Positions 6,797 through 38,989 of a stretch of DNA of 38,989 nt are shown here, piece by piece (the first letter of the stretch is position 1; each line of letters starts with the position of its first letter). Origin of the DNA: a virus; IMG/VR virus record IMGVR_UViG_3300048930_000687; one strand, written 5' to 3'. The notes under the pieces are model-generated. The model was not told the origin of the DNA and did no database searches. It saw only the letters and a list, made by a program, of their open reading frames with translations. The translations under genes and the position numbers were made by a program.

Positions 6797-7150
6797 CTAG
6801 GAGCCTGAGCGCGCCACCTGTTGGCGCGCTCCCTTTACGCCCGCCTGGCGGGCGTGGAAGGCTTGAGAGAGTTCCGGTGACAGTTCGCCGCGTTCGACCT
6901 GGTCGAGCACCGACTTGGCGATGCGCGCCCTGCGTGCGCCTGGGAGGCGCTGGCCGTACTTGTCGAGCAGCACGTACGCCTCGTTCAGGCTGTACCCGCG
7001 GTCTTGCAGGGCCTTGGCGTCGAGTGGCCGGTCGTCTGGTGGGGCGATCACGTTGATGGCGTCGCCCGCGAGGCGTTCGGTTAGGGCGCGTTCTAGGGCG
7101 GCGCGTACCGTGGCCTCCACGGTGGCCTTGAGCACCTCATCAAGACTCAC
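6797..7150 (-). CDS. Hypothetical protein (117 aa)
   Basis: GTG start inside track ORF 6797-7225, preceded by AAGGAGG; GTGA overlap with upstream gene stop. Confidence 0.5.
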   Translation of the reverse strand: MSLDEVLKATVEATVRAALERALTERLAGDAINVIAPPDDRPLDAKALQDRGYSLNEAYVLLDKYGQRLPGARRARIAKSVLDQVERGELSPELSQAFHARQAGVKGARQQVARSGS

Positions 7151-7329
7151 GACGACACCTCCTTGGCCTTCCGGTCCGTGCCCTCCCGGGCAACTCGCCG
7201 CGCCTCCATTTCTGGGATTCGCCACTGGCTACCGACCTTGACCGCGTGGATGCGGCCTGCCTGGATGAGCCTGTAGACGCTGAACTCGCTTACGTTCAGC
7301 GTCTCTGCCAGCTCTTTCGGGGTTTTCAT
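7147..7329 (-). CDS. Excisionase-family HTH DNA-binding protein (candidate Cro/Xis-like early regulator)
   Basis: Motif AETLNVSEFSVYRLIQAGRIHAVKVGSQWRI typical of excisionase/MerR-type HTH; divergent from the repressor gene; start chosen at MKTPKE (alternatives at 7344 or 7383). Confidence 0.65.
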   Translation of the reverse strand: MKTPKELAETLNVSEFSVYRLIQAGRIHAVKVGSQWRIPEMEARRVAREGTDRKAKEVSS

Positions 7330-7422
7330 CGACAGGCTGTCCATACGCTGCACAGCATAGACCAGCAGTAGATGCAGAGTCAAGGCTGAGCGTCTATGCT
7401 ATGAACTGATGGTAGATGCGCC
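7330..7422. promoter_or_regulatory. Divergent intergenic switch region with candidate operators
   Basis: Perfect 9-bp inverted repeat AGCATAGAC / GTCTATGCT (about 7354-7362 and 7392-7400); GTAGATGC direct repeat; TTGACT -35-like hexamer on minus strand. Confidence 0.5.
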
Positions 7423-7791
7423 GTGATGCTAACTGTTGCTAACCTCGACTGGATGGCGAAAGCGTCGACATCCAGCACCCTTCGTCCCAAGTGGGGGCGC
7501 AAGCTCGCGGCTCGACGCACCGAGCTCGGTCTCAGCCTTGGGGCGATTGAGGAAATGACCAACGGCGTTGTCTATACCCAGTTGCTGTATCGCCTCGAGA
7601 ACGGTCGCATGAACCCCAGGAACCTCAAGGCTCATCAGTTGGGGGCTCTGCTGACCGCGCTAGAGTGGACGCACGAGGACTGGGATGCGTTGCTTGGGCA
7701 GCCTTCTGGAACTACCGCTGGCGTCGGTACTCCAGTCGAGACCGCGAAGGGTCACGGCAGCTCACACCTGGTTATCCCAGGGGGGTGGTGA
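7423..7791 (+). CDS. XRE-family HTH domain protein (N-terminal part of a cI/LexA-like repressor)
   Basis: HTH-XRE-like region GRKLAARRTELGLSLGAIEEMTNG...; ORF ends TGA at 7789-7791 immediately after a G6 run; track start is GTG, ATG at 7426. Confidence 0.7.
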   Translation: MMLTVANLDWMAKASTSSTLRPKWGRKLAARRTELGLSLGAIEEMTNGVVYTQLLYRLENGRMNPRNLKAHQLGALLTALEWTHEDWDALLGQPSGTTAGVGTPVETAKGHGSSHLVIPGGW

Positions 7792-8165
7792 TGGTGCCGG
7801 TCTACGGCTCAGCAAACGGCGGCAAGCCATCCGAATACGGCATCCCAGTCGACCCCGAACTAGTCAGAGGCGACAACACCCGCGCCTACCAAGTAGACGG
7901 CGACAGCATGAACACCGGCACCGAAGAAGGCATCCGAGACGGAGACTGGGTACTCGTAGACACGAGCCTCACCAAAGGCATCCCCGGCCGAGTCTTCCTC
8001 CTCGAGATCATCGGCGACGGCATGACCGTCAAACGCCTCCGCGTATTCGACGGCGAATGGCGCTTCGCCAGCGACAACCCGGAGGTCGGCGAGAGCTGGC
8101 GTGGCGACCAAGTCCGCGTCATCGGCCAGGTGTACGGCAAAGTCAACTTCAAGGCGATCCATTGA
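7791..8165 (+). CDS. S24 (LexA/cI-like) peptidase domain protein (C-terminal part of a split repressor)
   Basis: Motifs VPVYGSANGG, DGDSM (Ser nucleophile context) and TVKRL (Lys); ATG overlaps upstream stop as TGATG; frame is open for 42 codons upstream of the ATG. Confidence 0.8.
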   Translation: MVPVYGSANGGKPSEYGIPVDPELVRGDNTRAYQVDGDSMNTGTEEGIRDGDWVLVDTSLTKGIPGRVFLLEIIGDGMTVKRLRVFDGEWRFASDNPEVGESWRGDQVRVIGQVYGKVNFKAIH

Positions 8166-8222
8166 GGCAAGCAGCAACACACTGAAAAGGGTGCACGTGA
8201 ACCAAGGATGGAGGAATCCAGA

Positions 8223-9350
8223 ATGAGTAGCCGCCCTTCTGTCCAAAAAGGGGACCCTGCCAAACTAATACCGCTGAGCGACCTCGCATTTGATCCCGAG
8301 AACCCGCGGCTGCCCAAAGAACTTGATGGATCGGACGAGGCGGCGGTGCTGGACTGGATGATAAAATACGGAGCCATCAATGAGCTGATGGCCTCGATTG
8401 GTATGCAAGGTTTTTTCACTGCGGAGGCCCTGCTCGCGGTTCCGAATCCCAGCGGCGGCTACTGGGTTGTGGAAGGCAACCGACGACTGGCGGCGGCAAA
8501 GCTACTTGTAAACCCAAACCTGGCGCGATCGCGGGCGAACTCAATAAGGGACACCGTAGCTGCGGCGGATCATGCGCCAACCAGGCTTCCGGTCATTGTC
8601 TACCCGGACCGCTCGAAGATCCTCGCTTATCTGGGGTTCCGCCACATTACAGGGGTGAAGCAGTGGGATTCTCTCGCAAAGGCTCGCTACCTTGAGCAGA
8701 TGCGAGTGCAGATGACCAACGACGGTGTTCAAGAAGCTGATATGAATCGCAACTTGGCGAAACTAATCGGAAGTCGTTCCGACTACGTCGAGAGGCTTCT
8801 ATTCGGCTTGAAGGTATACGACCGGATTGTCGAGGAAGTCCTAACTGATTCAGAAGTCAAGGTCGACGAGTCCGAGATCAACTTCTCCGTCCTCACCACC
8901 GCGCTGAACTATACGAGTATCGCCGACTTCGTGGGTTTGAATCGGGAGCAGGGTGTAGAGGGTGTCTCTCGAGAACGCCTTCGCGAACTCACTCAATGGA
9001 CGTTCGAGAAGAGCAAGGACCGACCATCTAGGGTCGGTGAGTCCCGCAACCTTGCCCTCCTCGCACAGGTCGTAGCCGAGGCAGACGCTCTCCAGGTTTT
9101 CCGAGACGGGGCGCCATTGAAGGAGGCGGCCGTTTACGCGAAAGGACCCGGCAAGTTGATGCGCGAGTCCTTGAGCGCAGCACGCAACAACCTTCGCGCG
9201 GCATTTGGTGCCGTCCTGACTGTGCCTGACCTAAACGAATCTGACCGGGCCCGAGCTGAGGAAGTAAGTACTGCAAGCAATCGACTCTTGAAGTTGATTG
9301 AGAGCGTCCTATTGGACGCGGCCAACAAGCAGGATGGGGGCCATGAGTAA
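8223..9350 (+). CDS. ParB/Srx-like N-terminal domain protein with unknown C-terminal region
   Basis: Motif VVEGNRRLAAAKLL resembles the ParB GxRRxxAA box; GGAGGA before the ATG at 8223; visibly lower G+C than surrounding genes; 8-nt overlap with next gene. Confidence 0.65.
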   Translation: MSSRPSVQKGDPAKLIPLSDLAFDPENPRLPKELDGSDEAAVLDWMIKYGAINELMASIGMQGFFTAEALLAVPNPSGGYWVVEGNRRLAAAKLLVNPNLARSRANSIRDTVAAADHAPTRLPVIVYPDRSKILAYLGFRHITGVKQWDSLAKARYLEQMRVQMTNDGVQEADMNRNLAKLIGSRSDYVERLLFGLKVYDRIVEEVLTDSEVKVDESEINFSVLTTALNYTSIADFVGLNREQGVEGVSRERLRELTQWTFEKSKDRPSRVGESRNLALLAQVVAEADALQVFRDGAPLKEAAVYAKGPGKLMRESLSAARNNLRAAFGAVLTVPDLNESDRARAEEVSTASNRLLKLIESVLLDAANKQDGGHE

Positions 9351-10371
9351 CGCCAGGCAGCTGCTTACGGCTGAACGGCGACCGACTATCCGGAAGATGG
9401 ACACGCATATGCACGCAGACTTTGCTGAAGTGCTATGCCTGGTGAACCCCGACCATGACATCTCAAGCTCGGACATACTCGACCGCTTCGCAGAGCGACG
9501 TGACCTGGGCGAGGAGTTCGAGGAGGCCGACATTGATCCGGAGTTAGCATTTGGTGTTGCCGGCAACTACGAACTGCCTACTGAGCAGCCCGTGGATGGG
9601 GAGTGCGAAGAGATCGATCAAATTAGTGAGCAACTCGTGCTCCGCCAGAGGCTCCTGGGAAGCGCCTATCCTTTTCGGCTCACGGTAACCGGATCGAGCT
9701 TCCGCCTCGCTCGCAAGCAGAAGCTCCACAAAGTGCACCTACTCTACCTGTTCCTACTGATTGCTTCGGATCTCACTCGCATCAACAACCCCACCTACTC
9801 GCGACGGTTTACTAGCGCATTTGAGCGGCTTGCAGGCGAGATGATGCGACGGCTGCTACCGTCCGGAGCCCAGGTTCACCTCTTTGGCACCGCCGCACAG
9901 AAGGGTGAATTGTTCCACGGTGGTCGCCTCGGTGATCGAATGGAACTCTTGGCTAAGCACTTACGCGGTGTCTCTAAGCTGGATAGGAACCATTCTGGGT
10001 CCTCTGGCGACGCCGGCATTGACATCGTCGGCTGGGTGCCAATGGGCGATGCGGGCGACGGCCTGCTAGTTTTGATGGGCGGTGCAACGTGCTCATACAA
10101 GAACTGGGAGAACAAGGTCTATAGTACGTCTTACGGCAGATTGAAGGAAAAGGTCCAGATTCGCGTCCCTAGCGTGAATGTGACATTCATTCCGTTTTTC
10201 ATGCGTACGTCCTCCGGCGATTGGCATAGGGCCGACGAACTCGGTGAAGCTCTCCTGGTGGACAGGCTCCGTCTCATCAAGGGTTTGGCTAAGGCCGGCG
10301 ACGTAATTGAATCCATCGGCGTAAAGCGGGAGCTCCGCGACATTCTTCAAATAAGAGAGACCACCGTCTAG
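9343..10371 (+). CDS. Hypothetical protein, candidate nuclease partner of the methyltransferase
   Basis: 342 aa; acidic N-terminal region; segment GDAGIDIVGW...GGATCSYK loosely resembles Mrr/PD-(D/E)xK-type catalytic cores; sits immediately upstream of a C5-MTase gene. Confidence 0.5.
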   Translation: MSNARQLLTAERRPTIRKMDTHMHADFAEVLCLVNPDHDISSSDILDRFAERRDLGEEFEEADIDPELAFGVAGNYELPTEQPVDGECEEIDQISEQLVLRQRLLGSAYPFRLTVTGSSFRLARKQKLHKVHLLYLFLLIASDLTRINNPTYSRRFTSAFERLAGEMMRRLLPSGAQVHLFGTAAQKGELFHGGRLGDRMELLAKHLRGVSKLDRNHSGSSGDAGIDIVGWVPMGDAGDGLLVLMGGATCSYKNWENKVYSTSYGRLKEKVQIRVPSVNVTFIPFFMRTSSGDWHRADELGEALLVDRLRLIKGLAKAGDVIESIGVKRELRDILQIRETTV

Positions 10372-10386
10372 AATAGATTGGCGTCC

Positions 10387-11361
10387 ATGACTCAGGTCCT
10401 CAAATCCGCCGTTTCACTCTTCTCGGGGTGCGGCGGGTTCGACTGGGGCGTGAAGAGCGCCGGTGTCGACATCATCTGGGCGAACGACATCGACCCTCAC
10501 GCGGCCGCTGCCTACAAAGCCCTGTTCCCCGAAACCGAGTTCCATCTCGGCGACGTAAGAGACATCGCGACCTTCCCCGAAGCTGACGTTCTCATAGGTT
10601 GCTATCCATGTACGGGCTTCAGTCTCGGCTCACGGCGACGCAACCGCGATGGCGCCGACAGGGACCTCAAAGCGAACGGCGGCAACTATCTGTACGAGGA
10701 ATTCGTCAGGGCCCTATCAGTCGTGCAGCCGGCGGTCTTCTTCATCGAGAACGTCGGTGGCATGACCACTGCGTCTGACGGTTGGTTTTTCGAGAAGCAG
10801 TTGACCGAGTTCAGGCGCCAAGGATACGTCGTCAACCACAAGGTCCTAGACGCGTCAAGTTTCGGAGCAGCACAGACCCGCAAGCGACTCTTCATCGTCG
10901 GCGTCAAGCAAGAACTCGGCACAAGCTTCACTTTCCCCGAACCCACACATGGTCAGGCTGACGACCTGAAGGCACTAGCAAGCCTCCGGTCGGCGCTAAC
11001 AAATGTGAAGACTGATGTTGACACCGAGGTCTTCAACTTCAAGTTTCACGGTCATTACCTGACGAGAAACCGGAAACGCCCATGGGAAAGCCCCAGTTAC
11101 ACCATTGTCGCTAACGCACACCACGTTCCCCTCCACCCGTCCGGTGAACCAATGCGCCGCGTTGGAGTGGATCATTGGGAGCTCCAGGGCGACGTGAACC
11201 GTCGGCTCTCATGGCGCGAATGTGCCGCAATACAAGGCCTTCCCCCACAAGTAGCGCCGTCGGGAACACTGCTCGACAAGTACAGGGTCGTAGGCAACGC
11301 AGTACCTCCCGTTTTCGGGAAGACCTTGATGGAAGAGGCCACAGCACAGTTCGGCAGTTGA
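10387..11361 (+). CDS. DNA (cytosine-5)-methyltransferase
   Basis: C5-MTase motifs: FSGCGG (I), GCYPCTGFS (IV, catalytic Cys), FFIENV (VI), QTRKRLFIVG (VIII), GNAVPP (X); start could be TTG at 10378. Confidence 0.9.
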   Translation: MTQVLKSAVSLFSGCGGFDWGVKSAGVDIIWANDIDPHAAAAYKALFPETEFHLGDVRDIATFPEADVLIGCYPCTGFSLGSRRRNRDGADRDLKANGGNYLYEEFVRALSVVQPAVFFIENVGGMTTASDGWFFEKQLTEFRRQGYVVNHKVLDASSFGAAQTRKRLFIVGVKQELGTSFTFPEPTHGQADDLKALASLRSALTNVKTDVDTEVFNFKFHGHYLTRNRKRPWESPSYTIVANAHHVPLHPSGEPMRRVGVDHWELQGDVNRRLSWRECAAIQGLPPQVAPSGTLLDKYRVVGNAVPPVFGKTLMEEATAQFGS

Positions 11362-11444: not shown

Positions 11445-11546
11445 ATGACCAGCAGAGTATGTATAGACGGTGAGGGCACCAATCGTTTACTTGACGGTCG
11501 GTTGACTCGCGTCACCGTCGGTTTGGTCCCGGACGATGTCCCGTAA
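11445..11546 (+). CDS. Small upstream ORF (33 aa) overlapping the integrase start
   Basis: ATG preceded by GGGGAGGAATA; my translation MTSRVCIDGEGTNRLLDGRLTRVTVGLVPDDVP; stop lies 8 nt inside int. Confidence 0.3.
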   Translation: MTSRVCIDGEGTNRLLDGRLTRVTVGLVPDDVP

Positions 11547-12831
11547 GCGCAATCGTCGCGCGCCGGGCGAGGGCGCCATCTACGAACGCCCCGACCGCGG
11601 CACCTGGGTGGCGGCCATCGTGATCGCCTTCGACGAGCACGGACGCCCAATCAGACGCACGAAGACCACGCGCACGAAGACCGAAGCCATGGCCTGGCTC
11701 ACCGCCCAGCAGGCAGCGCTCAACAGCGGCTTGAAGCTCGGGGAGAACGCGACCCTGCAGGAGGTCGTCGACGAGTGGATGGCCGCCGGCCAAGCCCTGC
11801 GCGGCTGGGGTACCAGCACCGTGACGTCATACCGAGCCACCATCGCGAAGATCCTCCCACGCCTCGGACGCATGCGGGCCCGCGACCTCGACCCAGCCCT
11901 CATCGAGCGAACCCTCCTCGACCTCACCCGCAACGGCGCCTCACCCGCCATGGTGGCTCGCGTCCGCAGCCACCTGGCCATGGCCTTGAGGTACGCACTA
12001 CGCAAGCGCCTAATCGAGCGCGACCCGATGCTTGGCGTGGACGCACCGACCACACCGGCTCCACAGATCCAACGATGGAGCGAGGCGGAGGCCGGCAGGA
12101 TCGTCCGCGAATGCCTCGACCGGGACGACCAGACCGCCAGGTACGTGCTGGTGGCACTCGGCACCGGTCTCCGAACGGAGGAACTGCTGGGTCTCGCCTG
12201 GTCGAGCGTTGACCTCGAGGAGCGCATCCTGCTTGTCGAGCGCGTGGCGATCGAGGTCGCCGGCAGGAAGGAGCTCCGGGCGGGCGGCAAGACCGAAGCC
12301 GCCAACCGCCCGGTGCCGATCGACGAGCTGACAGCCGCAGCCCTGGCGCGGCAGGCCGAGCATGTGGAGCACTTGCGCGGCGCCCGGGCGCACCTGGATG
12401 CCAAGCGGGTCGCCGAGGGCCTCCAGTCGCTCGGCTGGGCTGATCTCGACCTGGTGTTCCCGTCGTCGGTCGGAACGGTCGTGAGCCGCAAGACGCTCCG
12501 GGCCGGGTTCGGCGATCTGCAGGAGCGCACGGGCGTGACGCGCATCAAGCTCTACGCCACGCGATCCACGCACGGGAGTCTGTTGGCCGATGCGGGAGTC
12601 AACCTGCACGCGCTGGCCGAGCGCATGGGGCACGCCGACCGGCGTTACCTGGCCAAGAAGTACCTGCGGGGAAGCACGTCGGCGCACCGCGCAGTCGCCG
12701 AGCAGATAGGGCAGATCCTTGGTAGCACGCTGGTAGCAGGAGCCTCTCCGGAGAGCGTCTCGGAAGGTCACGAACCGGCAGGAGAGGGAGCGCGGAACAC
12801 GCGGGAAGTGCGACGGGAGGCCAGTAATTGA
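11536..12831 (+). CDS. int: Tyrosine-type site-specific integrase
   Basis: 431 aa; N-terminal arm-binding-like region, core with GLRTEELLGLAW, C-terminal HGSLL / MGHADRRYLAKKY consistent with the R-H-R-Y catalytic arrangement; followed by a tRNA 3' fragment. Confidence 0.9.
   Translation: MSRKRNRRAPGEGAIYERPDRGTWVAAIVIAFDEHGRPIRRTKTTRTKTEAMAWLTAQQAALNSGLKLGENATLQEVVDEWMAAGQALRGWGTSTVTSYRATIAKILPRLGRMRARDLDPALIERTLLDLTRNGASPAMVARVRSHLAMALRYALRKRLIERDPMLGVDAPTTPAPQIQRWSEAEAGRIVRECLDRDDQTARYVLVALGTGLRTEELLGLAWSSVDLEERILLVERVAIEVAGRKELRAGGKTEAANRPVPIDELTAAALARQAEHVEHLRGARAHLDAKRVAEGLQSLGWADLDLVFPSSVGTVVSRKTLRAGFGDLQERTGVTRIKLYATRSTHGSLLADAGVNLHALAERMGHADRRYLAKKYLRGSTSAHRAVAEQIGQILGSTLVAGASPESVSEGHEPAGEGARNTREVRREASN
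12721..12744. repeat. Direct repeat copy A (GGTAGCACGCTGGTAGCAGGA), candidate integrase arm-type site
   Basis: 19 of 21 positions identical to copy at 12969-12992; contains GGTAGCA twice 11 bp apart. Confidence 0.4.
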
Positions 12832-12869
12832 CTCGCGGTACGGGCCGGGGCAGGCATGCGCGCGCCCAT

Positions 12870-12913
<44 letters not shown>

Positions 12914-38862: not shown

Positions 38863-38989
38863 CGGTCACGCGTGAAAGCGTCACCGCTTGCCTCCGTACC
38901 AGGTCGATTGCGTGTTGCCGAGCGCGGCACGTCGCAGTTGCTCGTCGAGGTATTCGAGCGCGCCGAGGTCGCAGCGTGCTGGCGCCATG
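38863..38989. repeat. Terminal direct repeat, identical to 1-127
   Basis: Read directly from sequence. Confidence 0.9.

Follow-up and report, generated by a model that had tools for sequence, protein, structure and literature searches.

Does the interrupted repressor gene of this phage record a genuine loss of function, or does the interruption lie in the data, in an unusual mode of translation, or in a repressor made of two polypeptides? In the 38,989-nucleotide stretch of viral DNA considered here (the window), an HTH reading frame runs into a stop codon that overlaps the start codon of an S24-peptidase reading frame, and a sequence-only reading of the locus had left four possibilities side by side: a sequencing indel, a repressor-inactivating frameshift, a programmed −1 frameshift and a genuinely two-polypeptide repressor. 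It is the inactivating frameshift that our analysis supports, intact alleles of the same gene being present in near-identical phages. We propose, with a probability of roughly 0.75, that the window carries a very recent and genuine knock-out frameshift that has detached the DNA-binding domain of the repressor from its dimerising, self-cleaving domain, and that the phage is expected to be a lysogeny-defective variant of the clear-plaque type.

The open reading frames, the run of six Gs (G6) and the TGATG overlap described in the sequence-only reading are all present at the positions it gave (Table 1). The HTH frame ends in the residues ...VIPGGW*, with its TGA at 7789-7791; a GTG at 7423 would offer an alternative start and a product of 122 aa, while the ATG at 7426 is the one used by gene callers and by the relatives. 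Judging from its sequence and its placement 5 nt 5' of the ATG at 7791, the G6 run could act as a Shine-Dalgarno-like element for the second frame. That second frame is open back to 7665, and the 42 open codons upstream of its ATG, to which attention had been drawn, do exist; they are nevertheless uninformative, as between 32% (analytic estimate) and 46% (empirical estimate) of positions have at least 42 such codons in sequence of 64% GC. The GTG at 7665 was considered as a start for the S24 frame and was rejected, the stretch being HTH-frame linker in the intact alleles and its open length being that expected by chance.

Table 1. Features of the split repressor gene and its surroundings, in window coordinates.
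Feature	Position	Strand	Remarks
Small HTH_17 regulator, divergent, Cro/Xis-like switch partner	7147..7344	-	Pfam HTH_17 E 4e-11; gene calls
Intergenic control region, candidate operators	7351..7419	.	
5' repressor fragment, HTH and disordered linker	7426..7791	+	121 aa from ATG 7426; ends GGW* through the frameshift
G6 run	7780..7785	+	Codes Gly-Gly of the conserved PGG motif; length as in intact alleles
Lesion, 1-nt deletion (single T against TT)	7786..7786	+	Codon 121 (Leu); DNA alignments
TGATG, in which the HTH-fragment stop and the S24-fragment ATG (7791-7793) overlap	7789..7793	+	
3' repressor fragment, complete S24 peptidase/dimerisation domain	7791..8165	+	124 aa; Pfam Peptidase_S24 E 1e-14
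Cargo between repressor and integrase	8208..11361	+	380-aa PD-Lambda-5_A-like protein, 324-aa ORF, C5 DNA methylase
Tyrosine integrase, intact	11536..12831	+	431 aa; Pfam Phage_integrase E 2e-15, Phage_int_M E 2.6e-7
tRNA-like element with GGGGUUCGAAUCCCC T-arm	12847-12908	+	16 nt past the integrase stop

The proposal that the two frames are the HTH and S24 parts of one cI/LexA-type repressor is borne out by Pfam, by homologues and by structure. We assign the gene to the LexA/cI-type autocleaving repressors because of the profile of its homologues, its alignment to LexA, and the AlphaFold model with its Foldseek matches. Among ~5.8 billion proteins searched, 50 homologues were recovered, and almost all of these span both halves and are 217-263 aa long; the whole set is fused, with the exception of one 144-aa sequence that ends within the S24 domain. 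Aligned, they consist of variable HTH domains followed by a highly conserved module that starts (I/L)PGGLVMVPV.G.ANGG. Their profile, compared with the PDB, matches LexA and full-length lambda cI (3bdn, positions 20-232) and also a 434-repressor-derived chain (dh434, 1sq8); the profile was needed for this, phmmer with the single intact protein having found no match in the PDB. The AlphaFold (AF2) model of P0001, the closest intact relative, has a helical domain at residues 22-90 (pLDDT >90); residues 96-111 form a low-confidence disordered linker, the C-terminal domain has its first strand at 121-129, and 131-133 is a low-confidence loop. In Foldseek this model matches the C-terminal domains of lambda cI and LexA with target-normalised TM-scores of ~0.67-0.84.

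For the N-terminal half, the Pfam match of the first frame to HTH_31 (E 9e-4) lies under the gathering score, and together with the profile matches and the AF2 helices it points to an HTH domain. For the C-terminal half, Pfam, conservation, hhalign and Foldseek agree on an S24 domain with a Ser-Lys dyad. The hhalign alignment covers residues 76-198 of E. coli LexA, and as read from it LexA Ser119 corresponds to S161 of P0001 (window 7905-7907) and LexA Lys156 to K203 (8031-8033); these predicted catalytic residues are invariant in 48-49 homologues. LexA Ala84-Gly85 aligns with G132-G133 of P0001 (window 7818-7823), the predicted scissile bond, so placed that the sequence appears to retain a cleavage-site loop, with G133 invariant, G132 at least 90% conserved, and Gly at P1 in place of Ala or Cys. 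The window holds a disrupted member of the LexA/lambda-cI-type repressor family.

What separates the two frames is the loss of a single T. Five to six near-identical phage contigs (L001-L004, L010) read CCAGGGGGGTTGGTGATGG and encode one intact repressor of 246 aa, whereas the window reads CCAGGGGGG-TGGTGATGG at the junction, with one T of the TT gone and the G run unchanged; in the DNA alignments the intact GGGGGGTTGG becomes GGGGGGTGG in the window, and the missing T lies directly 3' of the unaltered G6. The sequence-only reading had looked for the lesion in the homopolymer itself, but the intact alleles have a G run of equal length, and it is the neighbouring base that has been lost. By this deletion TTG GTG ATG turns into TGG TGA TG, and the TGATG overlap is therefore its product. 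The suggestion that one extra G would fuse the frames into a protein of about 245 aa is right to the extent that 246 aa are recovered, but the protein so obtained carries L121V as its only change; restoring the T, the base truly lost, gives 246 aa of wild-type sequence. The frame changes where the flexible linker gives way to the first strand of the S24 domain, and a stop is reached two codons on.

The split is the derived state. The protein cluster that contains both window products also contains five intact 246-aa variants (P0001, P0053-P0056), and the N-terminal half in the window is identical to that of P0053-P0056 and one substitution away from P0001. At the DNA level, the 5' fragment equals codons 1-120 of the intact 246-aa alleles save for one SNP, and in the alignment with L001-L004 the first ~560 nt differ by one SNP and the indel only. 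L010, which was located through the gene downstream of the repressor, shares that gene and has an intact repressor; over 4,449 bp its identity to the window is 99.73%. From 99.7% down to ~40% identity, all relatives examined have a single frame and so carry both domains on one polypeptide, which the window, with its stop at 7789-7791 and its change of frame, does not. It had been allowed that related phages might share the two-frame arrangement; they encode one fused protein instead.

Apart from the indel, the 3' S24 part of the gene is a mosaic at 7958-8110, where clustered in-frame substitutions differ among the window, L010 and L001-L004 in alleles that are otherwise near-identical. This pattern suggests that co-circulating repressor alleles may have recombined.

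To judge what the deletion might do to the phage, we need to consider the rest of the lysogeny module. The window represents a temperate tailed phage genome, and the host is probably a member of the Deinococcota. The divergent HTH_17 regulator is 100% identical to that of the intact-repressor phages. The control region contains a 12-nt inverted repeat (CACAGCATAGAC / GTCTATGCTATG, 29 nt apart), two copies of GTAGATGC that are 44 nt apart, and a sigma-70-like promoter candidate on the minus strand (7383-7354). This region is identical to that of L001 and L004, so that no operator mutations of the vir type accompany the frameshift; with the divergent regulator also unchanged from the intact-repressor phages, the frameshift is the only change in the switch. 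The repressor lesion accordingly sits in a module whose operator region, regulator and integrase are all intact. Next to the integrase, the tRNA-like element is not called as a tRNA by ARAGORN, and in Rfam it weakly matches mascRNA, itself tRNA-like (E 0.026); it is probably the attP core with part of a tRNA gene. The public gene table of the window contig lacks a call for the 431-aa integrase, which is called in the near-identical Logan contig L010.

The genes between repressor and integrase look like prophage-borne defence or modification cargo. The N-terminal ~150 aa of the 380-aa protein match PADLOC PD-Lambda-5_A (E 7e-25), the C5 cytosine methylase is recognised by Pfam (E 9e-56), and the 324-aa frame gave no family match. 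In L001-L004 the same slot carries a DUF3800 gene instead.

In LexA and lambda cI the repressor is inactivated when self-cleavage detaches its DNA-binding domain from the C-terminal domain, which is responsible for dimerisation and cooperativity. A DNA-binding domain made without that partner would therefore be expected to bind its operators poorly. The first product of the split gene would be a 121-aa protein of HTH domain and linker, ~12 residues shorter than the product expected of normal self-cleavage at the predicted G132-G133 bond. The second would be a free S24 domain, possibly translated by reinitiation at TGATG behind the G-rich Shine-Dalgarno-like run, and with no evident role. The deletion would in effect mimic a permanently cleaved repressor, and the phage would then be lysogeny-defective and form plaques of the clear type. 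In lambda cI some operator binding can persist in the N-terminal domain. The mutant may therefore be leaky and not a true null, should the HTH fragment still bind to some degree or occasional slippage on G6 yield some full-length L121V protein.

Let us suppose, going one step further, that the HTH fragment still represses. Having lost the cleavage site and the peptidase, the phage would then be temperate still, though non-inducible or differently regulated. The HTH domain and the linker are complete, the promoter-operator region is unchanged, and isolated N-terminal domains of LexA/cI repressors keep sequence-specific binding at high concentration, all of which would suit such a phage. Every relative, however, has kept the S24 fusion, which implies that it is needed, and there is no HTH-only homologue among the search matches. 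The presence of the genome as circular, non-integrated DNA in three samples also argues against a functioning repressor, although this state is not specific to the mutant, for L001 with its intact allele likewise runs from the integrase into phage DNA. We consider continued repression by the fragment unlikely.

Could the split instead be read through, or could its halves work together? Slippage by −1 on G6, whether ribosomal or transcriptional, or co-operation between the halves, or a dominant-negative action of one of them as an anti-repressor, would each give the arrangement a function. A −1 shift on GGG GGG would indeed produce the 246-aa protein with L121V as its only change, and the TGATG overlap with the G-rich run in front of it favours translation of the S24 half. 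These features have to be set against the confinement of the arrangement to one clonal genome, the near-identical and the distant relatives all being in frame. A Deinococcota MAG prophage on a 107-kb contig has a fused HTH-S24 repressor of 69% identity, and its junction CCAGGGGGCCTG, with the codons CCA GGG GGC CTG, shows that the G run is not conserved. With its counterparts in Thermus phages IN93, Tsatsa and Riverbug the reconstructed fusion shares 36-40% identity, in a single alignment piece that covers up to 96% of its length; with blastn against phage records, the sole match was one of 147 bp to Thermus virus IN93. When the S24 half was compared with 1.84 billion representatives, nearly all strong matches had the module C-terminal in proteins of ~200-260 aa. 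Two proteins, P0065 (118 aa) and P0068 (144 aa), were candidates for independent stand-alone S24 splits and were rejected, both being gene calls from an internal Met within fused in-frame ORFs of 254 and 220 aa (L014 2593-3357, L015 10-672).

The local sequence speaks for recoding no better than the relatives do. There is no slippery heptamer of the form X XXY YYZ in 7665-7790, the zero frame reading CCA GGG GGG TGG TGA, and the stop codon stands apart from the G run. As for a downstream stimulatory RNA, 7786-7880 folds at -27.8 kcal/mol, no better than shuffled sequences (z = -0.24). With neither heptamer nor downstream structure, and with the split not conserved among relatives at 95-99.7% identity and ~50 distant ones, all fused, programmed frameshifting is disfavoured. 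The same fused relatives disfavour a two-polypeptide repressor, and since the model has the domains joined by a disordered linker, non-covalent reassembly of the halves would not be expected. Taken as a group, we think these functional readings of the split quite improbable.

A more prosaic explanation is that the deletion never happened, the true sequence being GGGGGGTT and the repressor intact. Some sequencing platforms tend to make indel errors at sites such as that of the lesion, which adjoins a G6 homopolymer, and the split contigs all come from one JGI sample series, so that a shared systematic error is conceivable. The evidence for the allele consists of assemblies, not reads, and on that basis such an error at GGGGGGTT is possible. 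Nonetheless, the exact 121-aa product is found on three JGI contigs and the exact 124-aa product on four. Sample 3300048588 has a contig of 38,989 bp with the split allele and sample 3300048834 one of 39,085 bp; over the parts compared both match the window at 100% identity, yet their circle is opened at different points, and a 1,993-bp fragment from sample 3300048589 (L007) also reads G6-T. Scanning the metagenome_contigs and viral_contigs collections, which evidently do not cover these samples, for exact copies of the junction gave no match. The window itself has a terminal direct repeat of 127 bp (1-127 = 38863-38989) and the other contigs run seamlessly over its ends, so it is a complete circular assembly with a unique length of 38,862 bp; none of the breaks of the three assemblies lies at the integrase/attP region. 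With the same allele in at least three separately assembled, fully identical circular contigs and in the fragment from another sample, a random assembly error is unlikely. The terminal overlap of 127 bp moreover suggests a short-read assembler with k=127, for which consensus indels would be rare, the large ORFs looked at elsewhere in the 38.9-kb genome are all uninterrupted, and the G run is of normal length. An artefact, and with it the sequencing indel of the sequence-only reading, therefore seems to us very unlikely.

It is most improbable that the split has been selected, whether as a reversible lifestyle toggle in which slippage from G6 to G7 restores the 246-aa protein with L121V, or because a freed S24 domain poisons intact repressor, in which case the dimerisation domain translated from TGATG would let the mutant superinfect lysogens of homoimmune prophages.

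We thus return to the knock-out frameshift. This is a known kind of event, an ordinary knock-out mutation and not a new two-part repressor, and it opens no new mechanism. Its consequences are for annotation and for natural history. In annotation, the two ORFs belong together as a single disrupted repressor gene, and the labels hypothetical protein and 'LexA repressor' should be avoided. As natural history, a temperate Deinococcota phage with its lysogeny module knocked out persists in several samples without a single base difference, and near-isogenic phages with the intact gene occur in other datasets.

Among known systems, the closest in architecture are the autocleaving repressors of the lambda cI / LexA type (MEROPS S24), which have the two domains in the same order as here and likewise a Ser-Lys dyad and a setting of divergent regulator and integrase, as well as a cleavage-site loop before the S24 core, which the window sequence appears to retain. 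They differ in that the domains in the window stand in separate frames through the 1-nt deletion, and the Ala-Gly scissile bond of LexA is replaced by Gly-Gly throughout the subfamily to which the window repressor belongs. The stand-alone S24 proteins of the UmuD type offer another comparison: any translation of the 124-aa ORF would yield an S24 domain on its own, preceded by a short tail N-terminal to the cleavage loop, and the fold of the P0001 model also matches UmuD' in Foldseek. Unlike those proteins, the S24 ORF of the window did not evolve as a gene of its own but constitutes the 3' half of a repressor gene, one that shares 99.7% identity with an intact allele.

In gene layout the window resembles Thermus phages, in which a LexA-like regulator, variable defence genes and an integrase occur together with a divergent regulator (PMC11437467). 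The LexA-like regulators of IN93, Tsatsa, Riverbug and Lalka (PMC11437467) are similar to that of the window at 36-40% identity, but their genes are intact and lie in phage backbones unrelated to it. For the mutation itself, the nearest parallel is found in lactococcal phage TP901-1, one of the cases in which cI frameshifts are a documented cause of clear-plaque mutants (PMC4892519). There, as here, a single-base frameshift in the repressor affects an otherwise intact temperate phage; the mutant described here is known from metagenome assemblies, and its break falls at the boundary between the two domains, leaving both halves as complete ORFs.
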